From IMG/VR virus record IMGVR_UViG_3300032167_007646: a stretch of 64,000 bases of DNA. One strand, 5' to 3'. Source of the stretch: a virus (lineage: Duplodnaviria; Heunggongvirae; Uroviricota; Caudoviricetes). This document shows, piece by piece, positions 11,555-58,763 of this stretch. Both the position numbers and the translations under genes were made by a program. How positions within the stretch are numbered: the stretch's first letter is position 1; each line of letters opens with the position of its first letter. The notes under the pieces were generated by a model that worked only from the letters and a program-made list of their open reading frames with translations, ran no database searches and was not told the DNA's origin.

Positions 11555-11583
11555 ATTATAACAAAAATTTTTCAATCTGTCAA
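11555..11583 (-). promoter_or_regulatory. Promoter TTGACA-N17-TATAAT
   Basis: Minus-strand TTGACA at 11578-11583 and TATAAT at 11555-11560. Confidence 0.55.
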
Positions 11584-12875: not shown

Positions 12876-12891
12876 ATAAACATCTCTCCTA

Positions 12892-24617: not shown

Positions 24618-24630
24618 TTATCCTCCTAAA

Positions 24631-25800: not shown

Positions 25801-26534
25801 TCACCACCCCCTGCTTTATCTTGTGTTGCTACCATTTTATCACCATCAACTGGTCCATCATAAACTATTTTACCATCTGTTATTCTCATAATTCTTTCTG
25901 TTTGAGCTGCAATACTATTATCATGAGTTATTAAAATAATAGTGTTACCCTCTCTATGTAACTGTTTTAAAAATTCCAATACATCTTTACCTGTCTTTGA
26001 ATCTAATGCACCTGTTGGTTCATCCGCAAGAATTACAGAAGGACTACCTGCTAAAGCCCTTGCAATAGAAACACGCTGTTGCTGACCACCTGATAACTGC
26101 GATGGTTTATTTTTAGCTTTATCACCTAACCCTACTTTTTCTAATGCCGCCATAGCCTTTTGTTTTTGTTCAGATTTAGATAACCCTGCATACAATAAAG
26201 GTAATGCTACATTATTCAAAACATTTAATTTAGGTAATAAATTATACTGCTGAAAAATAAAACCTAACATTTTATTTCTTACTTCTGCGAGTTCATTACG
26301 AGAATACTTTGATATATTTTTACCATTTAAATAATATTCACCACTTGTTGGTACATCTAAACAACCTATAATATTCATACAAGTAGATTTACCACTACCT
26401 GATTGACCTACTATTGCAACAAATTCACCCTCATATATCTTAAATGAAACACCATCCAAAGCATGAACAGTTTCATCACCCATTTTATATATCTTATATA
26501 TATCCTTAAATTCTACTAAAGGAGTTCTTTCCAT
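25797..26534 (-). CDS. ABC transporter ATP-binding protein (MacB/LolD-like)
   Basis: Walker A 'GQSGSGKST', ABC signature 'LSGGQQQRVSIARAL', Walker B 'ILADEPTGALD'. Confidence 0.85.
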   Translation of the reverse strand: MERTPLVEFKDIYKIYKMGDETVHALDGVSFKIYEGEFVAIVGQSGSGKSTCMNIIGCLDVPTSGEYYLNGKNISKYSRNELAEVRNKMLGFIFQQYNLLPKLNVLNNVALPLLYAGLSKSEQKQKAMAALEKVGLGDKAKNKPSQLSGGQQQRVSIARALAGSPSVILADEPTGALDSKTGKDVLEFLKQLHREGNTIILITHDNSIAAQTERIMRITDGKIVYDGPVDGDKMVATQDKAGGGE

Positions 26535-26548
26535 AAATTATTCCTCCT

Positions 26549-30867: not shown

Positions 30868-31112
30868 CCTTTAAATGCTTTTATTTTAGTAAATATTATA
30901 ACATATATCAAATATTTTGTCAATAATTATACTATAATTTTTATTATAAATTAAACTATAATAAAAAATAAAAATAGTTAAAAAAATATAAAAATTTTTA
31001 AGTTTTTACTTAATTTTTTGTTGTCTTTACAAGATTTCTTTATTTTAAAAAGTAAAAGTGTTAAAAATACTGAAATTTCAAGCAAATTTAACACTTTTCA
31101 AAAAATTAAATT

Positions 31113-32681: not shown

Positions 32682-32803
32682 AATCTCATCTTTCCCTTCT
32701 ATAATTTTTATAAAGAAAAATATTCTTTATTATATTTTAATTATGTAAACTGTCTTAATAACTGTCCAAACAATACCATTTCTGTTAAATAATATAAAAT
32801 TAT

Positions 32804-32848
32804 ACAAAAAAAAGATGTGTTAAACATAAAGTTTAACACATCTTTTTT
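32804..32848. terminator. Bidirectional intrinsic terminator ending the operon
   Basis: A-run, then hairpin GATGTGTTAAAC-ataaa-GTTTAACACATC, then a T-run. Confidence 0.6.
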
Positions 32849-32850
32849 AT

Positions 32851-33232
32851 TTAATCACAATTACAATCGCAATCACAATCACAATCGCAATCACAAGACA
32901 TATCACAACTAAAATCCCCTGTATCACAAACACAATCATCTTGAATTGTAGAATTATTTATTTCATCTTTAACCATATTTTCTATTTCACTATGTAATAA
33001 AACAGATTTACCATATTTTCTACTACCTAAAATAGATACTTCTCTCTCATCAAATTTTTTTCTTTATATCCTCTGATAATCCATATTTTCTACTACCTAA
33101 AATACTTGACCTGTTTCTTCCCTGATAAGCAAAACTATTACGAGCAACTTCCATACCTTTTTTAAAGCCCTCATGATAACCCTCTTGATAACCATCATGC
33201 CAAGATTTTATTTCTTTATTCTTATCTTTCAT
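32851..33232 (-). pseudogene. Frameshifted gene: a 60-aa ORF (33050-33232) followed in the +1 frame by an ORF ending in a 41-aa Cys/Asp-repeat tail (MVKDE...CDCDCDCDCDCNCD). Removing one base from a T7/A7 run at 33055-33061 fuses them.
   Basis: Hand translation. ORF1 ends '...ILGSRKYGLSEDIKKKI*'. The downstream frame reads '...FDEREVSILGSRKYGKSVLLHSEIENMVKDEINNSTIQDDCVCDTGDFSCDMSCDCDCDCDCDCNCD*'. A 24-bp direct repeat (33017-33040 and 33087-33110) encodes ILGSRKYG twice. Confidence 0.4.
32855..32900 (-). repeat. Imperfect hexanucleotide repeat (plus strand ACAATC[A/G])n encoding (Cys-Asp)n
   Basis: Plus strand reads 'acaattacaatcgcaatcacaatcacaatcgcaatcacaag'. Seen directly in the sequence. 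Confidence 0.8.
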
Positions 33233-33242
33233 ATTATCACCC

Positions 33243-33410
33243 TTACAACTTTATTTTTTTATTTTTCAAAGAACCATCCCAAATACTCCTAATCTTACAT
33301 ATAAAAGAATTTCTATTTCTATCATCATCTATTGACACACAAACAGGAACATCTTTACCCTCTTGTGCTAATGCTATCTTTTCTTTTGCAGTTAAATACT
33401 TTTTCTTCAT
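33243..33410 (-). CDS. Small hypothetical protein; start moved to MKKKYLTAKEK
   Basis: Short ORF inside the operon. Cys-containing. Confidence 0.3.
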   Translation of the reverse strand: MKKKYLTAKEKIALAQEGKDVPVCVSIDDDRNRNSFICKIRSIWDGSLKNKKIKL

Positions 33411-33423
33411 ACCTACATCTCCT

Positions 33424-34821
33424 TTACCATACAATTATAGGCATTGATTTATCTATATTTTCATAAACAACTTTTGCTGCATTTAATGGCATATTTACAC
33501 AACCATGAGAACCATTCCACTTATAAATATTCCCACCAAATTGATACCTCCAAGTAGCATCATGCAAACCTATACCACCATCAAAAGGCATCCAATACTT
33601 AACGGGTGTTTCATAATCTACACCCCTTAATACAGCATTTCTTGTTTTATATGTAAGAGAAAAAATACCTTTACGAGTACCCATATTTCTACCAACATTT
33701 CCTGTAACAACAGGAGTATCAACTATACATTCACCATTTACATACATCCAAACCCTCTGATTATCTATACTTACTTCTACATAACTATTTGAGAAATCTT
33801 TTTCACCAAATACTGCACCCTTTTGACTGAATATACCATCAAATGTTCCTGAATTTTTATTTAATAAATTTTCTTTTATGCTCTCAATCATTTTATTTCT
33901 ATCTAATATCCAACCATAATCCCCATTTGAAACTGTAATTACATCACCTGTGGAAGTTGTAAAAGAACGAGAAGTACCTATTGTAGTATATTTTTTATTC
34001 AACTCACCTACAAAAGATTTTACACCATCATTATCTATGTTAAAAGGTTTATCACCATTTAATGATATACCATCTTCTATATAATTAGGTATTAACCAAG
34101 CATAAAATATAGGTAAAGTAATTTTTTCTTTATTATTACCAAAAATGTATTCTAATTCAACTTCTTTATAACTGTTATAAATACCTAAATTACTGTTCAA
34201 AACTGAATTTTCTTTAATTACCTCTGGTGCTTCATAACAATTCAACTCTACAAAATCTATCTCTTTTTCAAAAGATTTTAATGCTTGTTCAAAAATATCA
34301 GAACAACCATCTACAAAAACATTGCCATAAACTTCTGGTATTATTTCAAATTCATTCTTTTCTATATTATATGTAATATACGCATTTTTTGATTCTATAA
34401 TATTTTCTTCATTCTTTTTACTTATAGTATTTATAATACTATCTATACTATCCTTATCTATAATAATAACATTAGTTAAATCTAAAGATTGTGTAGATTT
34501 ACTAAATAAAAATTTAAATTTACTCAATTTTCTTAAATTTTCCAATAATACTTCTTGATTTATATTTTCTATAACTTCAGAATATGACTTTTCTTCTGTT
34601 GAATTATCTGACAACTTTATAACAAAATTATAATCATTTATTTCATTTGAAATAATTTCACTTGCTTGTTTATTTGTCTTAAAACTTATATCTATATCAC
34701 CTATATCTGTACTTACTACAGAAGTAAAAGGAAAAACAATATTAAACAATACAACAACACCTATTACTACGACAAGTAAAATACTACACGCAACTATAAT
34801 CCAGTTGCTTACCTTTTTCAT
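33424..34821 (-). CDS. Membrane-anchored L,D-transpeptidase (YkuD-domain) protein
   Basis: N-terminal TM. C-terminal catalytic region '...GIGLHDATWRYQFGG...GSHGCVNMP'. Confidence 0.7.
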   Translation of the reverse strand: MKKVSNWIIVACSILLVVVIGVVVLFNIVFPFTSVVSTDIGDIDISFKTNKQASEIISNEINDYNFVIKLSDNSTEEKSYSEVIENINQEVLLENLRKLSKFKFLFSKSTQSLDLTNVIIIDKDSIDSIINTISKKNEENIIESKNAYITYNIEKNEFEIIPEVYGNVFVDGCSDIFEQALKSFEKEIDFVELNCYEAPEVIKENSVLNSNLGIYNSYKEVELEYIFGNNKEKITLPIFYAWLIPNYIEDGISLNGDKPFNIDNDGVKSFVGELNKKYTTIGTSRSFTTSTGDVITVSNGDYGWILDRNKMIESIKENLLNKNSGTFDGIFSQKGAVFGEKDFSNSYVEVSIDNQRVWMYVNGECIVDTPVVTGNVGRNMGTRKGIFSLTYKTRNAVLRGVDYETPVKYWMPFDGGIGLHDATWRYQFGGNIYKWNGSHGCVNMPLNAAKVVYENIDKSMPIIVW

Positions 34822-42166: not shown

Positions 42167-42430
42167 TTAAGACTCTCTAATAATACAATTCCTTACTATT
42201 CTATCTGCTAAATTTCCATACATAGAATATTTCCATTTCTTTTTATCATCCCAAGTTCTCCATTCACTTTCTGGAATACTATCAATTTTTTCAATAAATT
42301 TCTTTAATGTGTCTTTTTCTTTTTGAGTAATATGAAACCACATACTACCATTATGTGCTATCAAAGGTACATTATTTTCATCATCTAAATAATGTTTTAC
42401 TGAACTAGGTACTCTAATCATAAAAATCAC
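42167..42430 (-). CDS. Hypothetical protein
   Basis: 87-aa ORF. Confidence 0.3.
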   Translation of the reverse strand: MIFMIRVPSSVKHYLDDENNVPLIAHNGSMWFHITQKEKDTLKKFIEKIDSIPESEWRTWDDKKKWKYSMYGNLADRIVRNCIIRES

Positions 42431-42433
42431 TCC

Positions 42434-42985
42434 TTAATATCTACATAATTCTACTATTGTTTTTAATGCTTTTTTTCTACCCTCTGCAACTAAATTATTT
42501 CTCATAAATTCAGAAGTTTGATACTTATAATTCCTATAATACCAAGCAAACTGCAAAGGTATTACTTCTTCATCTCTAATTCTTCTTAATATTTCTAATG
42601 CTGTATCATAATCTACATAATCCTTTGTATAATTATAATGCCTTCCTGGTGCCTCTATCTTCTCAATAAAATATTTTTTATCTTTCTCTTTTACCAATAT
42701 TCTACCTATTTGTTCTACAGAATCTAAACCATTTGCTCTATTCAAATCTACTTCAAAACTATATAATGATTTTTTATTTGTTGGCATATTTGCTAAATAA
42801 TTATAAATATCATCTACTACTTTTAAATTAGAACATAATTGAATATCAGCATTATGTTTCTTTGCCATTTGTCTAATACCACTCCAAGTATGTCTATGTA
42901 AAAAATACTGAATATTTGCAGGAGTTTCTTTTATTTCTGCCAATTTACCTAACATTTGAATTTCTGAATCATACCAACTTGCCAT
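42434..42985 (-). CDS. Hypothetical protein
   Basis: 183-aa ORF. Confidence 0.35.
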   Translation of the reverse strand: MASWYDSEIQMLGKLAEIKETPANIQYFLHRHTWSGIRQMAKKHNADIQLCSNLKVVDDIYNYLANMPTNKKSLYSFEVDLNRANGLDSVEQIGRILVKEKDKKYFIEKIEAPGRHYNYTKDYVDYDTALEILRRIRDEEVIPLQFAWYYRNYKYQTSEFMRNNLVAEGRKKALKTIVELCRY

Positions 42986-42997
42986 ATTATCAACTCC

Positions 42998-43543
42998 TTA
43001 ATAATACATATATCTCATTCTCATTGTATTCTTCAATGTATCTCTACAATTTATTACAAATGTATCAAATTTAGTTACCCTACGTTCATCTATCAACCCT
43101 AAATCCTTAAATATATGAACACATCTTCTTGCAACCATATTAAATTCATTACATTTATCAGGGTCATTAGACCAATTTACATAACATTCTAATGCAGCAG
43201 ACTGTAATACTAAAATAGCATCATCTACAACAGAAGATGGTATTTGTGTTATATCACCATAACAACCTTTTGCATCTAATGTTTTTTCAGAAGTATAATA
43301 ATGAATAATATAAAATAATGTCTTTACTAAATAATTTACATTTAATCTATCTTTATAAGCAATATACTCCAACTCCATTAACTTATTTTCAGGCATATTT
43401 AACAATTCTTGAAAATGTTTTTGTTCATCACCCATTTTATGTTTTCGTGCAACTTCTTTTAATATATGATATCTTAAACTTGTTATTAATACAATAGTAT
43501 TATTATACATTTTAGCCTGCTTTTGTCTATCCATATTTATCAC
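42998..43543 (-). CDS. Hypothetical protein
   Basis: 181-aa ORF. Confidence 0.35.
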   Translation of the reverse strand: MINMDRQKQAKMYNNTIVLITSLRYHILKEVARKHKMGDEQKHFQELLNMPENKLMELEYIAYKDRLNVNYLVKTLFYIIHYYTSEKTLDAKGCYGDITQIPSSVVDDAILVLQSAALECYVNWSNDPDKCNEFNMVARRCVHIFKDLGLIDERRVTKFDTFVINCRDTLKNTMRMRYMYY

Positions 43544-48643: not shown

Positions 48644-49960
48644 TTATAATTCTCTTACATAAAAAGTTTCTTCTTCCGTTTCTACAACTATCTCACCATT
48701 TTTTACATAAAAATCTATTGGCTTTTCATCTAAACCAAAGTTAAGATATTCTGCTCTACCATAAAAATCTACAAGATAAAGATTATAAACACTCTTATTT
48801 TTTAAGTACATATTCTTTGGAATATGACCTTTTATAAAACCTAATTGAGAACCATCATCTAATACAATTACACCTATTTCTTCATCAAAACAACCATCTA
48901 ATTCTGAAACTTTCTGTAATTTCTTCAATATCTGCATTGTACCACTATTTATAGCATTATACTCTTTACTACTATCTACACGACTTCCTTTTTCTTTCAT
49001 ACCTGACATTTCCATTAAATTTCTCAAATAGAATTTATGTAAGGCACCATATTGTTTCTTTAATAAACTCTCTACATATCTTAAACCACTTTTATTTACT
49101 AAATCTATAAATACCTCTGATAAATTTTCAATAGATTCTTCTTCCATATTACACTTTTCATTAAAGTTTTCCAATTCTTCCATCATATTATCCAATTCTT
49201 CTATTGAAAATTCTTTTTCAACTTTTTCTACTTTATTACCACACACATTACAGAAATTCCAATTCTCTTTAATAGGAGAACAACAATTTGTGCAATAAAC
49301 ATACTTTGCTTCGCTTTCTTCTTCTTTTAACTTTTCTTTTACTTTCTGAACTTTACTTCTTAGTATTTCTTTATCACAATTATTCAAATCCATAACTCCA
49401 CAAAAAGACGTATTTACAAAAGTCTTTTCTAATTCTTCTGCAAACTTTTCTTCAAACTCTCTCCAATCATAACCTAAATTTGTTACTATTTTATAATATT
49501 TAACTTTAAATAAATATTCTTTTTGTTCATAACTTAAATTAGAACTTTCTTTACTCTCCAAACATTCAGCTAAATACATTAAAAATTTAGTATCTACCCA
49601 ATTTACAATTGGTTCTGCAGCTAAAATATATCTTCCTTGTTTATTAGTTTCTTCCAAACAACCTAATTGTTTTAATACCTTAATATTAGCATTTATTGTA
49701 GCACGACTATACCCTAATTTTTCTGCTAATTCCTGTTGAGTTACATTTACGACACCTAAATCATTAGCCATATCCATTAATAAGAAAAACAATTTTTGAT
49801 ATTTTGGTAATCTAATACTAAAACGACAACCTTTGTCTTTTATAAAACCATCTTCATTATAAACCTGCATATCAAAAGTGTCTCCTAACTTATCTAGTTC
49901 CTCTTTATCTCTTTTTCTCAAATTTTCTAATATTTCTTCTTGTTTCATAATTAAAACCAC
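48644..49960 (-). CDS. Putative transcriptional regulator: wHTH plus C-terminal zinc ribbon
   Basis: 'LAEKLGYSRATINANIKVLKQLGCLEE' HTH and 'CTNCCSPI...CNVCGNK'. Paralog of 53045-53782. Confidence 0.5.
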   Translation of the reverse strand: MVLIMKQEEILENLRKRDKEELDKLGDTFDMQVYNEDGFIKDKGCRFSIRLPKYQKLFFLLMDMANDLGVVNVTQQELAEKLGYSRATINANIKVLKQLGCLEETNKQGRYILAAEPIVNWVDTKFLMYLAECLESKESSNLSYEQKEYLFKVKYYKIVTNLGYDWREFEEKFAEELEKTFVNTSFCGVMDLNNCDKEILRSKVQKVKEKLKEEESEAKYVYCTNCCSPIKENWNFCNVCGNKVEKVEKEFSIEELDNMMEELENFNEKCNMEEESIENLSEVFIDLVNKSGLRYVESLLKKQYGALHKFYLRNLMEMSGMKEKGSRVDSSKEYNAINSGTMQILKKLQKVSELDGCFDEEIGVIVLDDGSQLGFIKGHIPKNMYLKNKSVYNLYLVDFYGRAEYLNFGLDEKPIDFYVKNGEIVVETEEETFYVREL

Positions 49961-50118: not shown

Positions 50119-51732
50119 TTATTTATCTAAATTTACTCCTATACTGCTAGCCTTCGTAGTAACACTTCTCCAAGTTTTATTTGGTAATAAAGTTAAAATT
50201 TCTTTTCCTAAAAAACTATAATTCATTTTTAATATTTCCACTTCTTCTTCAGTCCATCTATTTAATCTACACTTTATACCCTCTCTTTTTGCTTTTTGAA
50301 CTATTTTATGAGAACTCCTATGCCCTAAACCATTTTTCTGACATAATTCCGAACCACCTAAAGGATAATACTCTTTTAATATATTCTCCTCTTCAGGAGT
50401 CCAAAAGTCTACAAAGTTTACTTTTAATCCTAATTTAGATACCTGACCCCTTATCGATTGTGGACTTCTATTGAATAAACCATTATCTTGACACAATTTA
50501 ACGCCACCCAATGGATAATATTTTTTTATTATTTCTTTTTCTTCATCAGACCACAAAGTAGGTTCTTTTCCTCTTTTTTGTGTTAATTTCAAATGCTGTG
50601 CATATCGTCGTATCGCACAAATTGTTTTATCTAAACCTTTTTCTTGACATAATTTTGCACCACCTATTTGATAATATTCTTTCATTATATCAATATCTTT
50701 TTCAGTCCAAATAGTATGTGTCATATTAGTTTTTACTCCTAAAATAGACGCACGACCCTCTATACTTTTTTTATCTCTATTCAAACCATTTTTTTGACAT
50801 AATTTATATCCACCTACTGGATAATATCTATTAATAATGTCATCTTCAGCATTAGTATAATATCTACCATATTTTAAGTTTAATTCACGTGCTTTTGTTC
50901 CTATTGATTCTTTACTCCTATTTATACCCTTTTCAATACACAATAGTCCACCGCCTAATGGGTAATATTTTCTTAAAATACTCAATTCTTCTTCTGTCCA
51001 TGAAATTATTTTTACAATTCCTAGCTTTTTTGCTCTTCTATGAATAGCGTGAGTTTCCCTATTACATAAACCATTTTTTATACACTCTTCTACACCACCT
51101 AATGGATAATATTTACAAATGATTTTATCTTCTTTTTCAGTCCAAGGTACCATTCTTTGATAAATTAAACCTAATTGATTTGCTGAAGCTACAATATTAC
51201 TTTTACTCTTATGAGAAAGTCCATTTTCCCTACATAATTTACTTCCACCTAATGGGTAATATTTTCTTAAAATACTTATTTCTTCTTCATTCCATCTATT
51301 TATACCTCTTAAATATGATATACCTAAAACTTTTGCTCTACTTGTAATATTTTGAGAACTCTTTTTTATACCATTTTTTTGACAAGCAGATGAACCACCT
51401 GTTGGATAATATTTACGAATTATTTCATCTTCTAAATCAGACCAATTACCTAAATATTTTATATTTAAAAAAGCAGCCCTAGCATGTATTGCCTGTTTTG
51501 TTCTATTTATTCCTTTTTCAAGACAAAGAACTACACCACCCAATGAATAATATTTACTAATTATTTCATCTTCAAAGCTTTCCCAAATATTAACTAATCT
51601 TTTAACTCCTAAAAGACTTGCTCTTGCATATATTGCTTCAATAGACCTATTAATACCTTTTTCTTTACAAACTGAAGCACCACCCGTAGGATAATATTTA
51701 AAAATAATATCATCTTCTATTTTTGTCCATTT
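50119..51732 (-). repeat. Eleven tandem coding repeats of ~135-150 bp (Myb/SANT-like modules)
   Basis: DNA-level recurrence, e.g. 'ccacctaatgggtaatattttcttaaaatact' near 50950 and 51240. Confidence 0.7.
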
Positions 51733-52923
51733 TTCACTATAAATAACATTATGAATATTGTCTAAAACTTCCATAATATCCTTGCAATAACTAGATACAA
51801 TTATTTTCTTTTCATCATGACTATTTTCAAATTTATTTAAGTTCAATTTTTTATTTATTTCTTCTATAATGCTTAAACTAAACTTTTCATAACCCTCTAT
51901 TCTTTTTAAGTTACCTATAAAATCAAAGATTATTGGAGCTTTACCACCTATTTGTAAAGCCCTACCTAATTGCTGCAAATATACTATTGGAGACATTGTT
52001 TTTCTAAGCATTATTACGCCATCAATATCTTTAATATGAACACCCTCATTTAACATATTTATAGAAAGCAAAATATTTATTCCATTCTTCGTTTCATTAA
52101 ACTCATTTAAAACCCTCATATTTCCAGAATAATTACTATATGAATGTAAAATAAAAATATTTACTTTACCATTAAACCAAGAATATACTTTATCTTTGAA
52201 CTCTTCTAATTCTTCTAATCTAGTGAAGAAAGCTATCCATTTTTGATTACAACCCAGATTTACTGTTTCTTTTTGAATAATTTTACCTATACTATAATTA
52301 TTTTCTAAATTTGATACTACACTTTTAATATCCGTAGAAAATTTCTTATTATGCTTTTCTATTTTATCAAATAAATCTTTTTCATACCCATAATACGAAA
52401 CAACATACTTAAAAGTAGGAAGCACACCTGATACTACGGCATCAACAATGTTAAGACCATTTACTACATTACCTTTAAAGAATTCCTCTGACATATCTCT
52501 TTCATTATCAAGGTATCTTACAGGTGTAGCAGAAAGACCAACTGTTTTACAACCTTTTGATTCTGCTCTATCACAAAGCATTTCTACCTTTCTACCCCAA
52601 GTTTCTGCACCTATTCTATGAAATTCATCCAAGATAATAAGAGAAACCTTTTCACCAAGTTCCTCTATCTGATTATTCAAAAGCATTGAAATACCTTTAT
52701 ATGTATAGAAAATAACATTTTCACTATTTACACCCAAGTTCATTCTATAATTTTCAAGAATTGCATTTGTAGGTGCAATAACCAAAACATTAACATAGTC
52801 CTCAATCAAAGAACTAGCAATAACACCTTTTCCTGTTCCTGTAGCCTGAACAATACAGACACGAGAAGATGTCTTTAATCTTTCAATAACCTCATCATAT
52901 ACTATTTTATTATGTTCTAACAT
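50119..52923 (-). CDS. DExH-box helicase (SF2, type-III-restriction-res-like) fused to 11 tandem ~45-aa Myb/SANT-like repeats
   Basis: Walker A 'ATGTGKG', 'ILDEFHRIG', 'QQLGRALQ'. Eleven repeats of 'W(T/S)xEE(D/E)xI(L/I)xKYYPxGGxxLCxxNG(L/I)NRSxxSIxxRAxxLG(L/I)K'. Confidence 0.7.
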   Translation of the reverse strand: MLEHNKIVYDEVIERLKTSSRVCIVQATGTGKGVIASSLIEDYVNVLVIAPTNAILENYRMNLGVNSENVIFYTYKGISMLLNNQIEELGEKVSLIILDEFHRIGAETWGRKVEMLCDRAESKGCKTVGLSATPVRYLDNERDMSEEFFKGNVVNGLNIVDAVVSGVLPTFKYVVSYYGYEKDLFDKIEKHNKKFSTDIKSVVSNLENNYSIGKIIQKETVNLGCNQKWIAFFTRLEELEEFKDKVYSWFNGKVNIFILHSYSNYSGNMRVLNEFNETKNGINILLSINMLNEGVHIKDIDGVIMLRKTMSPIVYLQQLGRALQIGGKAPIIFDFIGNLKRIEGYEKFSLSIIEEINKKLNLNKFENSHDEKKIIVSSYCKDIMEVLDNIHNVIYSEKWTKIEDDIIFKYYPTGGASVCKEKGINRSIEAIYARASLLGVKRLVNIWESFEDEIISKYYSLGGVVLCLEKGINRTKQAIHARAAFLNIKYLGNWSDLEDEIIRKYYPTGGSSACQKNGIKKSSQNITSRAKVLGISYLRGINRWNEEEISILRKYYPLGGSKLCRENGLSHKSKSNIVASANQLGLIYQRMVPWTEKEDKIICKYYPLGGVEECIKNGLCNRETHAIHRRAKKLGIVKIISWTEEELSILRKYYPLGGGLLCIEKGINRSKESIGTKARELNLKYGRYYTNAEDDIINRYYPVGGYKLCQKNGLNRDKKSIEGRASILGVKTNMTHTIWTEKDIDIMKEYYQIGGAKLCQEKGLDKTICAIRRYAQHLKLTQKRGKEPTLWSDEEKEIIKKYYPLGGVKLCQDNGLFNRSPQSIRGQVSKLGLKVNFVDFWTPEEENILKEYYPLGGSELCQKNGLGHRSSHKIVQKAKREGIKCRLNRWTEEEVEILKMNYSFLGKEILTLLPNKTWRSVTTKASSIGVNLDK

Positions 52924-52990: not shown

Positions 52991-53044
52991 CCATTTTATA
53001 TAAATAATAAAAGGGTTAGAATAAACCTAACCCTTTTTAATATA

Positions 53045-53782
53045 TTATTCTTTATCCTCTGACCACCAATTTTCACCACAATTTTGACAATACACCCAAG
53101 AATATTTTACTTCTGCACCACAATGAACACAGAAATGCTTTTTATTCTTTAATTCCATACGCTTTTTATACAAATCACCATATTTTGTTTCAAAACTTAA
53201 CCATCTATAACCCATTGAACGAAGTATCCAATAAAATTTTATTTTGTAATTGTATTCATAATCTGTCATACCTGAATTTTCTGGTGTGAATTTTTTACCA
53301 TCATATTTTTCATCAAATATAATATTTTTTAAGTAATTTTCCATATACTTATATTCTGCACCACGCATAATACCTAATGCTGTCAATTTACAGGTTCCCC
53401 TTTTACTTTCTTTTTCTAAAAAACCTATATCTTTTAACTTTTTAATATAACTATTTATAGTCGCTCTGCTGCAACCTAATTTTTCACCTAATTCTTTTTG
53501 AGTTAAAGATACTGTTCCATCTAACTCTATTTTATCTAAAATAAGAAAAAGAAAACGCATATATTTTGGAAAACTTAAACTACAATGCTTTGACTTTATT
53601 ATATCATTATCTTTTAATCCTATTTCTTCTGATACTCTCTTTTCTGACGAATTATGAATACCTGTTAATAAAGAAGCAACTTCCTCTGAACTCATATTTT
53701 CAATACATACATTTGACATAAATTTAAACCTCCAATATTTTATTATACTATAATAGGTATAACTGTTTATAAATATGTCCAA
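53045..53782 (-). CDS. Putative transcriptional regulator: wHTH plus zinc ribbon (paralog of 48644-49960)
   Basis: 'LGEKLGCSRATINSYIKKLKDIGFLEKE' and 'CVHCGAEV...CQNCGEN'. Confidence 0.5.
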   Translation of the reverse strand: MDIFINSYTYYSIIKYWRFKFMSNVCIENMSSEEVASLLTGIHNSSEKRVSEEIGLKDNDIIKSKHCSLSFPKYMRFLFLILDKIELDGTVSLTQKELGEKLGCSRATINSYIKKLKDIGFLEKESKRGTCKLTALGIMRGAEYKYMENYLKNIIFDEKYDGKKFTPENSGMTDYEYNYKIKFYWILRSMGYRWLSFETKYGDLYKKRMELKNKKHFCVHCGAEVKYSWVYCQNCGENWWSEDKE

Positions 53783-53840
53783 ACTTATACATTTATGTCA
53801 AAGAAAATAAAAATTATTTGACATTTCTATATAACTGTAG
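53783..53840. promoter_or_regulatory. Candidate operator: inverted repeat ATGTCAAA-N14-TTTGACAT plus a direct ATGTCCAAAC half-site
   Basis: Read directly: '...aatatgtccaaacttatacatttatgtcaaagaaaataaaaattatttgacattt...'. Confidence 0.4.
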
Positions 53841-53872
53841 TAAAAAAAATATAGGGTTAATATGAATTAACC

Positions 53873-54463
53873 CTATTCTATATTAAATTTATCTATTTCT
53901 TCATCACTCATATCTAAATACCAATCTAAACACATAGAACATACTGTAAAACATTTACCCGTTATATTATCCATTACAGCCAATATTCTTTGTGGTTTAT
54001 ACTCAAATATCTCTTCATCTAATTCATTAGTACATTTATGACTTAAACCTTCTACAGATTTTGTTTCAAAAATCTCTATACAATATTCATCATTTGTAAT
54101 AGTACAATACCAATTCTCTTTTATTAATTTTAACAAGTGAAGATAATCTTTATTCCCCATTACAAAACCATAATGTTCCTCAATATACTTTAATACTGTT
54201 TCAAACATTTCTGTTCTACTCAATATATTTGAACTGTCTTTTCTGGCTATCATAACTTTACCATTTTCATCCTTAAACTTTAAGGACATTTTACGCATTT
54301 TTCTACCATCCACAGCAAATATATCTTCTAAATATTTACCTTTATACTCTATTTTAAGTTCTTGATGAACTTTTTTACCCCATTTACTTATTATACAAAC
54401 AAAATTATTATTACAATATTTATCAAATAATTTCAACGATTTTATATTATCATATGCTTCCAT
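53873..54463 (-). CDS. Hypothetical protein (Cys/His-containing)
   Basis: 196-aa ORF. Promoter TTGACT-N17-TATAAT at 54493-54521. Confidence 0.35.
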   Translation of the reverse strand: MEAYDNIKSLKLFDKYCNNNFVCIISKWGKKVHQELKIEYKGKYLEDIFAVDGRKMRKMSLKFKDENGKVMIARKDSSNILSRTEMFETVLKYIEEHYGFVMGNKDYLHLLKLIKENWYCTITNDEYCIEIFETKSVEGLSHKCTNELDEEIFEYKPQRILAVMDNITGKCFTVCSMCLDWYLDMSDEEIDKFNIE

Positions 54464-54539
54464 TATACCACCTCATATATTATCATGTTTATATTATACC
54501 AAATTACTTTAATTAAGTCAATAACTAAAAATGAAAAAG

Positions 54540-54602
54540 ATTGGACTATTTTAAAATAATAATCCAATCTTTTTCTGTGCATAACACGCCAAATTGCCAA
54601 CT
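54540..54602 (-). ncRNA. Candidate small RNA unit E: promoter 54610-54638, terminator hairpin AGATTGGA...TCCAATCT plus U-run
   Basis: Consensus promoter, then ~65 nt with no ORF, then an intrinsic terminator. Confidence 0.3.
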
Positions 54603-54654
54603 TGGATATATTATAACATACTTCTTTATAAAAGTCAATAGGTAATTAATTTTT

Positions 54655-54798
54655 TATTTAAAAGTAATAATCCATTGTATTTTCTAAATACAATGGACTA
54701 TCTGGCTTTTGCTTATTTTTAAATAATATAGATATTTTTGATTGCACTATAACAATCAAAGGAGTGATTTTATAAGTAAGAACAATATACCTTACCTA
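54655..54798 (-). ncRNA. Candidate small RNA unit D: promoter 54806-54834, terminator TCCATTGTATT-tagaaa-AATACAATGGA
   Basis: Promoter, ~140 nt with no ORF, terminator. Confidence 0.3.
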
Positions 54799-54879
54799 CA
54801 AATATATAATAACACAAAATAAATATATTGTCAACACCTATGCAAAAATATTTTTTAAAAGAAAATAACCCACTCAACT

Positions 54880-54996
54880 CCCCCAAAGTCAAGTAGGCTA
54901 CTTCCCTATATATAATTATAAAATATGGAGGGTTTCTGGTAAAAACCCTACCAAGAAGGAGACGCATAGGCAGGAAAACGAATAAAACCTACCCAG
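54880..54996 (-). ncRNA. Candidate small RNA unit C: promoter 55004-55032
   Basis: Promoter then ~115 nt with hairpins (GGGTTT...AAACCC). The terminator is less clean. Confidence 0.25.
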
Positions 54997-55039
54997 CAAT
55001 TATATTATAACATTTTTATGAATATTTGTCAATAAGGAG

Positions 55040-55149
55040 AGAGAAAAAATTTAAAAAGAAATAATCCTACAACCCATAAGGAAGCAGGATTATCTCAACA
55101 AAGGATATTTATTATGATTTATATAGTCTTTGAACTCACTCTCTGACTA
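55040..55149 (-). ncRNA. Candidate small RNA unit B: promoter 55157-55185, terminator AATCCTGC...GTAGGATT plus U-run
   Basis: Promoter, ~110 nt with no ORF, terminator. Confidence 0.3.
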
Positions 55150-55204
55150 TAAATATATTATAACAAAATATTTTTTATTTGTCAATAACCACATCAAAAT
55201 TTCT

Positions 55205-55370
55205 TTTTAAAAGAAAGGAGGGGAGTGCTATGTCCAAACACTCCCAATGGAAAAATTATGTTTCTTAAAAATCAAAAGAAACAAAGCAATAGCAAAGATG
55301 AAAGAGGTTAAAGTGGAAAAACGAAAAACCACTAAATTACAGCAAGGGGGATAGCTGTCTTTCACCTTAC
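55205..55370 (-). ncRNA. Candidate small RNA unit A: promoter 55378-55406, terminator GGGAGTG...CACTCCC plus U-rich tail
   Basis: Promoter, ~165 nt with no convincing ORF, terminator. Confidence 0.3.
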
Positions 55371-55424
55371 ATTTATTATTATAACACACATTTCAACTTT
55401 TGTCAACCATTTTTTTTATTTTAA

Positions 55425-55500
55425 TAAAAAGAATTTTGGTGAGTTTAAAAACTCACCAAAATTCTTGTAAATAAGGATGTTTCCCTATTTGTAGTTTCTA
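55425..55500 (-). ncRNA. Candidate small RNA unit G: promoter 55508-55536, terminator TTTTGGTGAGTTT...AACTCACCAAAA
   Basis: Promoter, ~75 nt, terminator. Confidence 0.3.
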
Positions 55501-55571
55501 TATTACTATTATACCATTATTATATTCATTTGTCAATAAACAAACTTAATTTTTATAAACTAAAATATAAA

Positions 55572-55598
55572 GGGTGGGTTCGTAAAACGAACCCACCC
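55572..55598 (-). terminator. GC-rich perfect-hairpin terminator (family member 1)
   Basis: GGGTGGGTTCG-taaaa-CGAACCCACCC, downstream of the BI-1-family gene. Confidence 0.6.
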
Positions 55599-55612
55599 TA
55601 AATTATGTAATA

Positions 55613-56281
55613 TTAGTCATCAGACTTACCAAAGATTTCAAGAAGTCTAATAAAGAGATTTATAATATCCAAATAAATATCAAGTGCAGAATCTACAGCA
55701 TTATCTACAGTCTTAGGATAACTCTGTGCTTTATACCAGTCATAACCAATATATAATGAGAAAATAACTACAAAAATCCAATTAAATATTGGTGCTGCAA
55801 TACCAAAGAGCATACAAATTAACTCTGCAATAATACCAAAAAGTAACGAGAAAAACAATGTTCTACCAAGTCCTGCAAAGAATTTAGGAAAAACAGTTGT
55901 AGAAATCATCATTACAGCAGTAATACCACCTGTTGCTAAGAATGCAGATTTAATATCCACACTTGAATATCCTTGCAAAGCAACACTCAACACTGCACCA
56001 ACAGGAACAACCACAAGATTATAACCTATAAAACTGATAATAGGATTACTTGACTTTACAGCCATAATAATACCAATGATACATGAAATAAAATACCCAA
56101 TAATTAAAGTCCAGGGATTCATAGCCATAAATACATCAGAATAAAAATGGACTATTAGAACATTTACAATGAAACCCCAAAGGAGAACAAGACCTATAAT
56201 ACCATTATAAACATTTCCATTTAAGGTGTCTTTTAGACCTGAACTCATACGAGCCATTTTTCTCTCTTTACCATTAAACAT
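55613..56281 (-). CDS. Bax-inhibitor-1/YccA (TMBIM) family membrane protein
   Basis: Seven TM helices. C-terminal 'DSALDIYLDIINLFIRLLEIF' is typical of the family. Confidence 0.6.
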   Translation of the reverse strand: MFNGKERKMARMSSGLKDTLNGNVYNGIIGLVLLWGFIVNVLIVHFYSDVFMAMNPWTLIIGYFISCIIGIIMAVKSSNPIISFIGYNLVVVPVGAVLSVALQGYSSVDIKSAFLATGGITAVMMISTTVFPKFFAGLGRTLFFSLLFGIIAELICMLFGIAAPIFNWIFVVIFSLYIGYDWYKAQSYPKTVDNAVDSALDIYLDIINLFIRLLEIFGKSDD

Positions 56282-56322
56282 TTAACATTACCACCTTTTT
56301 ATTTTTTCAAGATTTGATTATA

Positions 56323-56351
56323 TTATAACATAAATATTACTTTTTGTCAAC
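56323..56351 (-). promoter_or_regulatory. Promoter TTGACA-N17-TATAAT (TGn-extended) for the BI-1-family gene
   Basis: Minus-strand TTGACA at 56346-56351 and TATAAT at 56323-56328. Confidence 0.6.
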
Positions 56352-56420
56352 TATTTTTTGTAAATTTAATATTTTATTAAAATCTTATATTTACAAATAT
56401 TCTCTATAATTCTAAATTAA

Positions 56421-56447
56421 GGGTGCGTTTGTGAAACAAACGCACCC
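56421..56447 (-). terminator. GC-rich perfect-hairpin terminator (family member 2, with compensatory changes)
   Basis: GGGTGCGTTTG-tgaaa-CAAACGCACCC. Confidence 0.55.
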
Positions 56448-56469
56448 GCCTATTTGAGATATTAGATTT

Positions 56470-56702
56470 AAAATAATAAACCCACAGGTTAATATTTCAA
56501 ACCTGTGAGTCTATTATAAAAATGAGATAAAAAAATGAATAATAAAAAATATATTATAAAGAAAAAACAGAAAAAGAATAGTTTTCTCTTATTGTAGAAA
56601 GGAGTGGGGTTATCAAAGGAGATTAAAGATAACCCCAAAATGCAATATGAATTATAATTGTTAGTCGCATGGAAAAAATTACAAACCAACAAACCTTTTA
56701 AC
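56470..56702 (-). ncRNA. Candidate small RNA unit F (~230 nt): promoter 56710-56738, terminator CACAGGTT...AACCTGTG
   Basis: The only ORF in the unit (56489-56704) is low-complexity (FFF/LLL) and starts at the predicted transcription start. Confidence 0.25.
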
Positions 56703-56746
56703 AATTATTATTATAACACAATTTTTTACTTTTGTCAACTATTTTT

Positions 56747-57016
56747 TTAAATATTATTTAATAAATCTACAAAATTATTGTATTCACAAAGAGTTCTCTC
56801 TGTCCTACCATCATCACTCACATATTTAATCTTATCAGAATAAACACAAATTTCATCATAAGTACCAAATCTTAAACTACGAAGTACAAAAGTATCCTCT
56901 TTTTCATCCAAATAAATATCTATACGAGGATTAGATTGAAGTAATCTATTATACTCCATATCATACTTATACATACCACGAACCTTTGAAATTACATCTC
57001 TTATCAATTTTTCCAT
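56747..57016 (-). CDS. Hypothetical protein
   Basis: 89-aa soluble ORF. Last gene of the five-gene unit. Confidence 0.35.
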   Translation of the reverse strand: MEKLIRDVISKVRGMYKYDMEYNRLLQSNPRIDIYLDEKEDTFVLRSLRFGTYDEICVYSDKIKYVSDDGRTERTLCEYNNFVDLLNNI

Positions 57017-57033
57017 TTCTATAACACCCCTTA

Positions 57034-57252
57034 TTATTTAGTTTCTTTATTTACTTCTACTTCTTCAGCTTCCTCTGGAAAGGCTTTTGGCATTAAATAA
57101 ATCAATAATATTGCTATACTACCAACAAAACCCACAATGTAAATAAAAATACCTAACCAAAGATTATAATTTATTACAAACGCACTTGCAATAGTTAAAA
57201 GAAGTCCTACAAAAATCAATTTCAACATATTTATACCACCTTTATTAAACAT
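57034..57252 (-). CDS. Small membrane protein
   Basis: 72-aa ORF with two TM helices. Confidence 0.35.
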   Translation of the reverse strand: MFNKGGINMLKLIFVGLLLTIASAFVINYNLWLGIFIYIVGFVGSIAILLIYLMPKAFPEEAEEVEVNKETK

Positions 57253-57526
57253 TATTTAAGTCATCTGTAAAATTACTTATAAATACAAATAAACCCATTA
57301 TTGCAATAAGTGCTGCTACAACAAATAAAGGTATATGAACTGACATTACAAGCAACTGTAAAACTGTATGAATATAAGGGTTCTGAAAAGCTATATTGGT
57401 CCAATCCAAGCACCAATTATAAGAATTACTTAAAAGAGCACATCCTAATACTCCTATACTCATTAAAACACAACATATTACAAAACTTAAAATTAAATTT
57501 CCTATACTCTTAAATACTCTTTTCAT
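57245..57526 (-). CDS. Small membrane protein
   Basis: 93-aa hydrophobic ORF. Confidence 0.35.
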   Translation of the reverse strand: MKRVFKSIGNLILSFVICCVLMSIGVLGCALLSNSYNWCLDWTNIAFQNPYIHTVLQLLVMSVHIPLFVVAALIAIMGLFVFISNFTDDLNNV

Positions 57527-57821
57527 TTTTTACTCCTTTTTCTTCAAAACAACAACCTATAAAAACGACTATACCAACATATAATATATACGCAAAAATA
57601 CCACTTAAAATCATTGAGAGTATAACAGGTATTATCAATAAAATAATCTCTATAAAAATATTACCAAACTTTTCAACTAATTTAGTATATAACATACTTA
57701 AAAGTTCATATAAGCAATAAAAACCTGAAACTCCTATTGTACTAAACAATGTAAGTACAATTATACCAAATACTTTATCTTTTAAATTTCTTATCATATT
57801 AATACCCTCTACTCTCATCAT
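57510..57821 (-). CDS. Small membrane protein
   Basis: 103-aa hydrophobic ORF. Confidence 0.35.
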   Translation of the reverse strand: MMRVEGINMIRNLKDKVFGIIVLTLFSTIGVSGFYCLYELLSMLYTKLVEKFGNIFIEIILLIIPVILSMILSGIFAYILYVGIVVFIGCCFEEKGVKNEKSI

Positions 57822-58164
57822 TAATATGATTAAACGCTGTAAAACTACTTATAAAAATAATTATACCACTTAAACCAAATACTAAACACAAACCAAGTAT
57901 AAATAAGCCTATTGTTAAGGAAAAAATACCAAGTGTAACTGAAAAGATTAACCACCAATTACAACCTACAAGAAAAGTCCAAGTCCATTTTAATCCCATT
58001 ATTACACCATAGGCACAAATACCTGAAATACTTAATAAAAAACTACAAAGTAATAATGAACCCAATACAAACAATATTGCAGTAATTATTTTTAATTTTT
58101 TATAATCTTTATGAACGATATTAAGGTCATTACAATTTACATTTAATATACCCATTTGTTTCAA
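57799..58164 (-). CDS. Small membrane protein
   Basis: 121-aa hydrophobic ORF. Promoter at 58179-58207. Confidence 0.35.
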   Translation of the reverse strand: MKQMGILNVNCNDLNIVHKDYKKLKIITAILFVLGSLLLCSFLLSISGICAYGVIMGLKWTWTFLVGCNWWLIFSVTLGIFSLTIGLFILGLCLVFGLSGIIIFISSFTAFNHINDESRGY

Positions 58165-58178
58165 CTCCTTTTACAAGT

Positions 58179-58207
58179 ATTATAACATAAATAATACTTT
58201 TTGTCAA
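58179..58207 (-). promoter_or_regulatory. Promoter TTGACA-N17-TATAAT (TGn-extended)
   Basis: Minus-strand TTGACA at 58202-58207 and TATAAT at 58179-58184. Confidence 0.6.
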
Positions 58208-58291
58208 CATTTTTTATTAAAATTTCAATAAATTTCTTTAGTTTTACTTATTTTAACTATATTTACTTATACCTATTCATCAAACAATAAA

Positions 58292-58318
58292 GGTGGGGTT
58301 CGTGAAACGAACCCCACC
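58292..58318 (-). terminator. GC-rich perfect-hairpin terminator (family member 3)
   Basis: GGTGGGGTTCG-tgaaa-CGAACCCCACC. Confidence 0.55.
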
Positions 58319-58388
58319 ACCTAAAAATACCACTATATTATCAGCATACGCTGATTCCTGCTGGCACAATTTTTATACAATAAAACAA

Positions 58389-58763
58389 TTATCTTCTCTC
58401 TTTAACTATATACTCAACATACTCAAGAACTTCATTGGCTAAAACACGCCTATGAGGGCGTTCTGTACTTACAATACCAGAATATACAGGGTCTAAACCA
58501 TACCTCTTTGCCATTCTATTTAATATACCAATATTCTGAATAACTATATTATGACAATTAGTTCTCCTTGTATCATAATTTGTTAAAGTATATTGATAAT
58601 CCGCTATACTCATATCTTTATCCTTAAATCTTAAAAATGTTTCCATATGATAAATTATACTATGATACTCATGAAAACTCTTTACACACGATTGAATCAT
58701 TTCCAACTCCATACCATCACTACAAACATCAAATAATTTATTTATTACTTCTGCATTTATCAT
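58389..58763 (-). CDS. Hypothetical protein with a possible HEPN-like Rx4-6H motif; start moved to MINAEV
   Basis: 'TRRTNCHN'. RBS GGAAAGGGG before the internal Met. Weak call. Confidence 0.25.
   Translation of the reverse strand: MINAEVINKLFDVCSDGMELEMIQSCVKSFHEYHSIIYHMETFLRFKDKDMSIADYQYTLTNYDTRRTNCHNIVIQNIGILNRMAKRYGLDPVYSGIVSTERPHRRVLANEVLEYVEYIVKERR

Follow-up and report, generated by a model that had tools for sequence, protein, structure and literature searches.

The stretch of DNA analysed here (64 kb, 27% G+C; its full length is called the window) comes from IMG/VR virus record IMGVR_UViG_3300032167_007646, assigned to the Caudoviricetes, and carries at positions 54470–56740 an array of short promoter–terminator units. 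All features of this array were on the minus strand, as was every open reading frame (ORF) of at least 90 amino acids (aa) in the window that resembled a gene. The first-pass annotation, made from the letters alone, had described at least seven consecutive ORF-less units here and had left their strand unstated; the promoters and terminators were found where it had placed them, on the minus strand. Nine promoters of the sigma-A extended −10 type spanned 56738 to 54493 (TTGACA/TTGACT-N17-TATAAT/TATTAT), and the TG extension, which had been claimed for most of them, was present in all nine.

Given from the start of the −35 element to the end of the −10 element, the promoters were P_A (56738–56710; TTGACA-N14-TG-N-TATAAT), the promoter of a Bax1-I gene (56350–56322; identified in the consensus promoter scan and heading no ORF-less unit), P_C (55536–55508), P_D (55406–55378), P_E (55185–55157) and P_F (55032–55004), all four of which match the extended consensus exactly, P_G (54834–54806; −10 element TATTAT), P_H (54638–54610; −35 element TTGACT) and P2 (54521–54493), a second promoter before a 196-aa gene that was seen only in the window, L004 and L031 lineages. 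A scan of 52–59 kb for sites with at least 11 of the 12 positions of TTGACA-N17-TATAAT plus the TG extension returned 11 promoter sites, including these nine. Exact TTGACA-N14-TG-N-TATAAT occurred 14 times in the 64 kb, on the minus strand only (0.01 expected from shuffles), and the looser TTGAC[AT]-N14-TG-N-TAT[AT]AT was found at 19 sites in the window, 9 of which fell within the 2.25 kb of the array. The 52–59 kb interval also held 12 terminator-like hairpins against 1.3 expected, in agreement with the stem-loop terminators described earlier.

Seven of the nine array promoters met a terminator before any ORF led by a Shine-Dalgarno (SD) sequence, after 70–290 nucleotides (nt). The other two (56350 and 54521) were followed within 29–40 nt by an SD and a gene, namely the Bax1-I gene and the 196-aa gene. 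Seven ORF-less units were thus confirmed, and their description as consecutive was not, because the Bax1-I gene (56281–55613) lies inside the array and the ninth promoter (54521) serves the 196-aa gene. Similarly, one stem-loop per unit held for most units and not for unit A, with three successive hairpins, or unit F, with two. The two longer ORFs in the region (54770–54967 and 56489–56704) did span promoters or terminators, as had been noted. Strong promoters elsewhere in the window had an SD-led ORF 23–85 nt downstream with two exceptions, both ordinary on inspection (at 30923, a start with a weaker SD ~40 nt downstream; at 11583, a 188-nt leader), and the remaining intergenic gaps of the window contained small genes with obvious SDs. 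Because promoters and gaps elsewhere lead to SD-led genes, the array is singular within the 64 kb.

The ORF-less units were named A (56703–56415), C (55501–55425), D (55371–55207), E (55150–55050), F (54997–54855), G (54799–54655) and H (54603–54525). A self-comparison in which only the promoters were alike led us to reject the idea that the units form a repeat family. Minimum free energy z-scores of the units ranged from −3.8 to −9.9, and the predicted layout of each RNA was a stem-loop at the extreme 5' end, a single-stranded segment (the candidate seed) and an intrinsic terminator.

Coding potential and selection on the units

At least 15 metagenome contigs carried the array unchanged (100% identity), and three variant strains had it at 98–99% identity; such near-identical strains (L001–L019, 98–100% identical in the array) were of no use for covariation. 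The longest contig with the Bax1-I protein was 301,593 nt. Relatives reached via this protein had its gene in other contexts, without the array. Informative relatives were reached via homologues of the 89-aa gene that lies just upstream of unit A. A second lineage (L033–L037), ~80% identical, had kept the gene order, from an 87-aa gene through unit A, Bax1-I and units C to H to the 196-aa gene. A third lineage (L038–L041) had neither Bax1-I nor the array; at unit A's place, L038/L039 carried a single ORF-less cassette with unrelated hairpins and with AAUCUCCUUUCG exposed just before its terminator.

Window genes had a median SD–anti-SD pairing energy of −10.5 kcal/mol (5th–95th percentile −13.8 to −6.4). 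No minus-strand start in the seven units had a credible SD, and comparable energies were reached only inside G-rich hairpin arms, at frames of 11–20 aa. The earlier statement that 60–230 nt without a credible ORF follow each promoter was therefore borne out, with predicted lengths of 70–290 nt. Between the window and L033/L034, no SD-led ORF on either strand was common to both lineages besides the two genes, and so the conserved micro-ORFs that the first-pass annotation had named as a result that would count against RNA products were not found. Indels between the lineages were not multiples of three, both in unit D (1, 4, 5–6 and 13 nt) and in units A and G, which excludes a conserved reading frame.

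The plus strand was also considered. AAGGAG occurs there seven times in the region, six times in or beside units and once inside the Bax1-I gene, and one of the six unit-associated copies has a start at a usable distance. This site, antisense to the 3' end of unit D (55215–55268, plus strand), is a near-ideal initiation region, AGAAAGGAGGGGAGUGCU-AUG, with an SD energy of −17.4 kcal/mol and the SD 9 nt before the ATG at 55230. Its 12-aa frame (MSKHSQWKNYVS) is hydrophilic and, by manual translation, shrinks to 6 aa in L033. A Lys-rich antisense ORF of 35 aa (plus strand, 55247–55354), which gene callers predict in the contigs, was found by manual translation to be broken in frame in L033. Small protein genes at equivalent places in related elements would likewise fit an array of decaying small early protein genes or of missed micro-peptides, possibly plus-strand ones. 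We consider this explanation extremely unlikely: none of these frames is conserved between lineages, for which reason the plus-strand SD/micro-ORF idea was rejected, the SDs of genuine small genes in other parts of the window are obvious, and decay would not keep promoter hexamers, stems and seeds under selection. A type I toxin–antitoxin arrangement, i.e. a small hydrophobic toxin ORF with an overlapping antisense RNA, was not seen in the region either, where the only antisense ORFs were these hydrophilic 12-aa and Lys-rich 35-aa frames.

Substitutions between the window and L033/L034 were distributed in a manner that points to selection on promoters and on RNA. The −35 and −10 hexamers had 0 substitutions in 96 positions (those of P_A were invariant in L033–L036), compared with 30% in promoter spacers. 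Bax1-I codon positions 1, 2 and 3 had changed at 12%, 5% and 25–27%, respectively, and unit stem positions at 23%. Unpaired unit positions had changed at 29% outside the seed windows and at 3.8% (6/159) within them.

Pairing was examined in a six-sequence alignment (A3) with an RNAalifold structure for each unit, comprising 286 pairs in 28 helices. Standard pairs were formed in 95.4% of cells, compared with 45–48% when the 3' partners were slid. Covariation analysis, which had been suggested as a check on the RNA interpretation, gave 25 pairs that had changed on both sides, compared with 2–7 for slid partners and 14.2 ± 2.4 for shuffled alignments, none of 500 shuffles reaching 25. When folded separately, the lineages had the same architecture. 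Cassettes also differed in presence: a unit X (L034:10245–10400; TTGACA-N17-TATACT, 5' hairpin, linker ending GCUCCAAU, terminator) was located between units F and G in L034–L037 and was absent from L033 and the window. Since the presence of unit X varies, the units behave as separable genes that are gained or lost whole.

These results strongly suggest that the RNA itself is under selection, with pairing kept through compensatory changes and short unpaired segments kept in sequence. The units show what is expected of generic trans-acting small RNA (sRNA) genes, namely their own promoter and Rho-independent terminator, no SD-led ORF and, across two to three lineages, a compensated structure with a conserved single-stranded seed. 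That they are functional sRNA genes is well supported by the invariant hexamers, compensated stems, non-triplet indels, kept motifs and cassette turnover. The earlier proposal that the products of these independent, early-type promoters are RNAs rather than proteins thereby gained comparative support (invariant hexamers against 25–30% change in promoter spacers and in third codon positions of the neighbouring gene, compensatory hairpins, non-triplet indels and conserved motifs).

Anti-Shine-Dalgarno segments and their putative targets

The hexamer CTCCTT has the sense of the anti-SD of 16S rRNA. It occurred 12 times on the minus strand of the 64 kb, 7 of them in the array region: five inside predicted RNAs, one outside unit E at 55039 and one in the Bax1-I coding sequence at 56185. 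The five copies outside the region were all within coding sequence. In the 999 nt of predicted RNA, CTCCTT was found 5 times against 0.44 expected and CACTCC 3 times against 0.06 (dinucleotide shuffles; P < 0.0005). The units contain 14.7% of the base C, compared with 8% in the coding sense strand. The five hexamers inside transcripts had been selected before any relative was known, and every one of them was identical in four loci that are ~20% diverged; at a neutral rate of 0.29 per site, 30 unchanged sites have a probability of ~3e-5. The CTCCTT at 55039, which follows the terminator of unit E and is outside the predicted RNA, was entirely replaced in the second lineage. The one cassette of the third lineage again displays the motif (AAUCUCCUUUCG).

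The motifs were located in the A loop, A tail, D 3' tail, F linker and G linker, with a weaker version in the E linker, and took the conserved CU-rich forms CUCCUUU, CCUCCUUUCU, (A)UCACUCCUUU and loop UCCCCCUU. UCCC or CUCC in a loop or single strand, as in the CU/C-rich sRNAs that target SDs, was found in the A loop, A tail, D loop, D tail, F linker and G linker, and folding predicted that the CU motifs are unpaired with probabilities of 0.8–1.0.

Unit A (56703–56415) is predicted to give an RNA of ~105, 234 or 289 nt, depending on the terminating hairpin. Hairpin 1 (56636–56606) displays CUCCUUU in its loop (56621–56615; UUUAAUCUCCUUUG; unpaired probability ~1.0) and is followed by the tail CUCCUUUCU at 56604–56596, where the CU motif is ACUCCUUUCUA; after the tail come a dispensable U-rich spacer and the terminators T2 (56509–56470) and T3 (56447–56421). 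The 5' domain of unit A is ~50% diverged between lineages, with the hairpin and both CU motifs kept. In the strain variant L008, a 78-nt deletion (56593–56516) removed the U-rich spacer only and retained both CU motifs and the terminators. L004, L008 and L010 have a 39-nt insertion near 56390, upstream of the Bax1-I promoter. Upstream of unit A, an operon with a promoter at 58207 (58164–56747, minus strand) consists of genes for four highly hydrophobic small proteins (121, 103, 93 and 72 aa), followed by that for the 89-aa protein. No terminator separates the operon from unit A, the hairpins of which would end the operon too, and part of the A RNA could be a 3' untranslated region product of this operon.

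Unit C (55501–55425; RNA of ~77 nt) has a 5' segment of 45 nt that is 100% identical between lineages and includes a hairpin at 55490–55469 (AAAUAGGGA-AACA-UCCUUAUUU); in the stem of its terminator (55466–55429), four pairs had changed on both sides. Unit D (55371–55207; ~163 nt, with a variable middle and, between lineages, indels of +1, +4, +13 and +5/6 nt) begins with a hairpin that has a conserved C-rich apical loop, UAUCCCCCUU (55352–55343), and a covarying stem in which 3 of 3 pairs had changed on both sides. Its terminator hairpin (55245–55221) is followed by the 3' tail CUCCUUUCUUUU at 55220–55209, with the CU motif CCCCUCCUUUCUUUU; together with the last stem base, the tail reads CCUCCUUUCU (55221–55212). 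Unit E (55150–55050; ~98 nt) comprises a 5' hairpin (55150–55123), the conserved linker AUAAAUCAUAAUAAAUAUCCUUUGU with UCCUUU at 55105–55100 (the weaker CU motif, AUAUCCUUUGU) and a terminator (55096–55053); compensatory changes replaced an A-U pair of the 5' hairpin by G-C and a U-A pair of the terminator by C-G.

Unit F (54997–54855) is predicted to give an RNA of ~75 or 141 nt, ending at hairpin/terminator 1 (54953–54926) or terminator 2 (~54907–54857). The arms of its 5' hairpin (54997–54964) covary around a conserved loop, and its linker, GUCUCCUUCUUGG, contains CUCCUU at 54961–54956. Unit G (54799–54655; ~143 nt) has compensatory pairs in its 5' hairpin (54799–54772), hairpin 2 (54760–54737) and terminator (54702–54666), and its linker AAAAUCACUCCUUU contains CACUCCUUU at 54766–54758 (CU motif AAAAUCACUCCUUUG).

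A function in transcription was considered as an explanation of these features, with the promoters and terminators serving as a bank that ties up host RNA polymerase, insulates adjacent genes or activates a replication origin close by, or acting in series as attenuators of the Bax1-I and 196-aa genes. The perfectly conserved promoter hexamers would fit, as would the replication-type genes directly downstream (a RepL-like helix-turn-helix (HTH) protein and a helicase), the resemblance of unit H to a cis leader or attenuator, and the lack of a terminator between the upstream operon (58164–56747) and unit A. We regard this explanation as unlikely, since it accounts neither for the conservation of unpaired segments (3.8% against 29%) and the compensated 5' hairpins nor for the free change of CTCCTT just outside the RNA, and since each array gene is separated from the previous terminator by a promoter of its own.

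The tails of units D (CCUCCUUUCU) and A (CUCCUUUCUA) match, over 10 nt, the very 3' terminus of Firmicute 16S rRNA; CCUCCUUUCU of unit D is identical to the final bases of 16S rRNA in bacteria. A scan of IMG/VR for the D tail matched only the reverse complement of an unrelated gene start (L032, same 19-mer), which shows that this tail corresponds to the complement of a strong translation initiation region of generic type. The 16S likeness, conserved in both units and placed each time after a stable hairpin, could alternatively mean that hairpin and CCUCCUUUCU together imitate the tail of 16S rRNA with its 3' minor domain. As decoys or sponges, the RNAs would then titrate a factor that binds to this tail (a host toxin or nuclease that cuts the anti-SD, an enzyme of rRNA maturation or modification, an initiation factor or a ribosomal protein) or soak up an AG-rich host sRNA, and the many very strong promoters, which imply stoichiometric rather than catalytic amounts, would suit such a role. 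The motifs of units F, G and E, however, are in internal linkers and not after a hairpin at the 3' end, the flanks are specific to each unit, as would be expected of distinct base-pairing specificities, and no candidate partner protein was identified, so that we find the decoy explanation doubtful.

The reading that we favour, to which we assign a probability of about 0.5, is that the array, unit H apart, is a set of independent promoter–RNA–terminator cassettes for sRNAs that occlude SDs. Promoters with the extended −10 consensus of host sigma-A would be read by unmodified host RNA polymerase, i.e. early, and each cassette would give a 70–290-nt RNA with a 5' stem-loop and an intrinsic terminator. 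The RNAs of units A, D, F and G, with E and C as weaker cases, would expose a conserved unpaired CU-rich segment with the same sense as the 16S 3' tail, which would pair with AG-rich SD regions of mRNAs and block binding of the 30S subunit, with the conserved flanking bases setting each RNA's own targets among host or element mRNAs. Units A, D, F and G are best read as base-pairing sRNAs that repress translation initiation, a mechanism with moderate support; unit E is probably a base-pairing sRNA as well, and units C and X possibly are.

Paired with initiation regions of the window, the seeds gave median energies of −8.4 to −11.1 kcal/mol, compared with −10.8 for the 16S tail and −4.9 to −7.1 for internal controls. 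A search for perfect complements between the units and the window, a check of the kind proposed in the first-pass annotation, yielded mostly A/U-rich chance matches; only one match lay in both a seed and an initiation region. This was a 13-nt perfect complement (AAGGAGUGAUUUU) between the unit G linker and the initiation region of an 84-aa gene starting at 42421, which grew to 16 nt with the L033 version of the linker (manual comparison) and makes this initiation region a candidate target of unit G. The 84-aa gene is the last of three consecutive genes (178/181, 183 and 84 aa; 42167–43543, minus strand) with AAGGAGT(G/T)GAT-type initiation regions. GGAGTG, in or extending the SD, was present in 9 of 86 window initiation regions. 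No clear pattern emerged when SD classes of element genes were considered as a means of escape from the sRNAs.

Several points weigh against the SD-occlusion reading. The CU motif was first noticed by eye, so that its enrichment is post hoc (its conservation was tested later, on independent sequences), and units C, X and H have no clear CUCC motif. Pairing between seeds and initiation regions is circular evidence, as any anti-SD sequence pairs with SDs. Element genes also use AAGGAG-type SDs (16 of 86), and a general anti-SD activity would affect them too. The structure in the pairing test was derived from the same sequences as were tested, some of its "unpaired" cells reflect alignment misregister, and the power of the comparison comes from two to three lineages only. 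Finally, both transcription and targets are predictions from sequence.

Unit H and the surrounding genes

Unit H (54603–54525) differs from the other units in that it precedes a gene. Its core, AAGUUGGCAAYUUGGCGUGUU(A/U)(A/U)GC at 54603–54579, carries the direct repeat UUGGC twice, between about +4 and +24, and is followed by a terminator (54575–54533) and the 196-aa gene (54463–53873, function unassigned). At the DNA level the core is AAGTTGGCAAYTTGGCGTGTT, with TTGGC repeats 8 nt apart (window 54579–54603, minus strand; L028:7908–7932; L031:8436–8460; L038:9455–9478). The core was invariant in five lineages, and the terminator stem had been rewritten each time yet always paired; only L030 lacked unit H. 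In L028, L033–L037 and L038/L039, the promoter led through core and terminator directly to the SD and ATG of the 195/196-aa gene, with no second promoter, and the window, L004 and L031 had the extra promoter P2 inserted after the H terminator. In the lineages that lack P2, transcription from P_H must read through the terminator for the 196-aa gene to be expressed.

A terminator between promoter and gene that is conserved together with the gene is the arrangement of a leader or attenuator, and unit H is most likely a cis-acting attenuator or regulator binding site rather than a trans-acting sRNA. Of the seven RNA units of the first-pass annotation, one is hence better read as the cis leader of the 196-aa gene, and five or six show the 5' hairpin, single-stranded CU-rich seed and terminator of Gram-positive sRNAs that cover SDs, such as LhrC, RsaE and the csRNAs. 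The core may bind a neighbouring HTH protein, of 245 aa (53045–53782) or 438 aa (48644–49960). In unit H we found no alternative antiterminator pairing and no effector, and the core did not covary with the variable arm of the terminator, which argues against a simple RNA switch. An IMG/VR scan for the core returned no match. Like the 6S RNA/Q system at lambda pR'-tR' and like Gram-positive attenuators, unit H combines a strong promoter, a terminator ~70 nt on and before the gene, and a conserved element after the start site; it differs from these leaders in that no antiterminator protein, alternative pairing or ligand fold was found.

The Bax1-I/YccA-like membrane protein (222 aa; 56281–55613, minus strand; Pfam PF01027, E = 3.5e-23) belongs to the FtsH-binding/US12 family. 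Its gene has the character of a "moron" within the sRNA array, with its own consensus promoter and terminator (55599–55571). Homologues 71–86% identical were seen in different small-gene operons of related elements, and one that is 63% identical (L026) was in a bacterial chromosomal context next to GAPDH. The RepL-like HTH protein and the helicase are encoded immediately downstream of the array. A SNF2/DEAD-type helicase with C-terminal Myb-like repeats (50119–52923, minus strand) varied widely in length among the lineages compared (643, 787, 790, 934 and 1006 aa, in order of size, from the window, L033, L034, L036 and L038 taken together), and this variation apparently lies in the repeat-containing C-terminal part. 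The best annotated matches of the SNF2-type helicase were Ruminococcus megaplasmids.

Genes elsewhere in the window specify a UvrD helicase that resembles the one of SPO1, kinases for thymidine and thymidylate, two DNA methyltransferases, a NUDIX hydrolase, an M23 peptidase and members of the radical-SAM family; RtcB, Tpt1 and Thg1 are encoded by relatives. No virion genes were found in the 64-kb window, which does not reach the genome ends. Cargo atypical of phages was present at 11649–14115, 22368–28168 and 31113–34821 (minus strand), comprising a Na+/H+ antiporter, a PBP-like phosphate-binding protein, an SLH-domain protein, a MacB/FtsX permease with an HlyD adaptor, a flotillin/SPFH protein and a YkuD L,D-transpeptidase, and raises the question of whether the element is a jumbo phage or a megaplasmid. 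A small ORF at 32853–33035 (minus strand) has a Cys/Asp repeat at its end (...DCVCDTGDFSCDMSCDCDCDCDCDCNCD*), where the DNA repeats GATTGT/GATTGC; its product could be a metal-binding peptide or a repeat artefact. Given the strictly unidirectional genes, the many perfect consensus promoters and the genes for nucleotide metabolism and RNA repair, a large virulent phage that infects a Firmicute is the probable identity of the element, with a megaplasmid or phage-plasmid as the less probable alternative.

Relation to known RNAs and implications

None of the units matched a described RNA family. The Rfam scan that had been proposed alongside the covariation analysis gave no match at gathering thresholds over the whole window (Rfam 15); at E ≤ 10, the region 54400–56800 gave only sub-threshold matches to hairpins, the best being RefA9 (34 bits against a threshold of 49) on the Bax1-I terminator. 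A tRNA/tmRNA scan found none, blastn of 53000–58500 against a phage collection found no match, and IMG/VR searches with the Bax1-I, 196-aa and helicase proteins found no useful relative and did not recover the element itself. The conserved 5' region of unit C and the H core were both absent from 185,579 species-representative genomes, and the element is thus not contained in any of these.

The cassettes come and go in an early region that is hypervariable, as is typically seen at loci of counter-defence, and host-type promoters would provide the early expression expected there. The RNAs could on these grounds be anti-defence RNAs that mimic repeats of CRISPR (clustered regularly interspaced short palindromic repeats), type I/III antitoxin RNAs or retron noncoding RNAs. 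This is very unlikely in our view, as there was no Rfam match even at E ≤ 10, CRISPR direct-repeat families included, there are no tandem repeats, and the units share the anti-SD motif rather than a repeat-like hairpin.

The SD-occlusion reading has its closest parallel in LhrC1-5 of Listeria monocytogenes, which are head-to-tail sRNA genes, each with its own promoter and terminator, four of them in tandem. LhrC copies are near-identical paralogues, dependent on LisR and chromosomal, whereas the units here are mutually unrelated, have constitutive consensus sigma-A promoters and reside on a mobile element. LhrC has three redundant CU-rich/UCCC sites, in loops and single strand, that cover the SD; CU/C-rich seeds of this kind are also known from RsaE, RNAIII, SprD and FsrA, and sRNAs of low-GC bacteria have been described as typically having a C-rich motif (PMC4132741). 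The units are likewise connected with RsaE/RoxS, RNAIII, SprD, FsrA and the streptococcal csRNAs by exposed C/CU-rich motifs directed at SDs, and the loop UAUCCCCCUU of unit D resembles the C-rich loops of RsaE/RoxS. The csRNAs carry complements to the SD and the start codon. These RNAs are chromosomal regulators of stress and virulence with no similarity to the units in sequence or covariance model; the Rfam scan found no homology to LhrC, RsaE or the csRNAs, and the likeness is in mode of action only.

Among phages, SPO1 has a host-takeover module in its terminal redundancy, with units that encode the small proteins gp37–gp60. This module and the T5/T7 early clusters share with the array a dense set of strong host-type promoters in one direction with short units. 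The sigma-A promoter cluster and short units of the SPO1 type were thus found here, and its small host-shutoff proteins were not, seven of the nine units being ORF-less. Noncoding RNAs have been found by RNA sequencing in phage K, PhiKZ, PAK_P3 and 201phi2-1, with no shared motif or mechanism, whereas the present units are known from sequence, with evidence of selection and a common anti-SD seed. Those of phage K (Herelleviridae) come from their own early promoters, some in the early/terminal-repeat region, and have been assigned no mechanism (PMC9241854). A review of phage sRNAs covers mostly enterobacterial prophages, and the terms "Gram-positive", "Bacillus" and "lytic phage" are absent from its text. 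We know of no described bank of six or seven different anti-SD sRNAs on a phage-like element. The units appear to belong to no described RNA family and to be of the CU-rich anti-SD type seen in Firmicutes, in a tandem arrangement like that of lhrC; what would be new is a set of mutually unrelated RNAs with constitutive consensus promoters on a phage-like element.

Regulatory RNAs of virulent phages, especially those of Gram-positive or uncultured anaerobic hosts, are almost uncharted, and this locus is a compact case for study, in which six or seven different sRNA genes combine a consensus promoter, clear ends and evidence of selection and have a candidate seed in common. ORF-less gaps in the early regions of metagenomic phages could be mined for RNA genes in the same manner, by comparison of syntenic strains. 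If SD occlusion holds, the array would also supply promoter–sRNA–terminator parts for use in low-GC Firmicutes that are strong, short and orthogonal. A role in host takeover is hypothetical. In its boldest form, which we consider improbable, a large virulent phage would use RNA for part of its early takeover: abundant anti-SD sRNAs would compete with the 30S subunit for SDs, or act as a decoy for a factor that attacks the 16S tail, so that translation would be globally re-programmed in an SD-dependent Firmicute, with cassette turnover tuning the targets. If the RNAs do occlude SDs, the array would represent RNA-based control, or shut-off, of translation by a mobile element.

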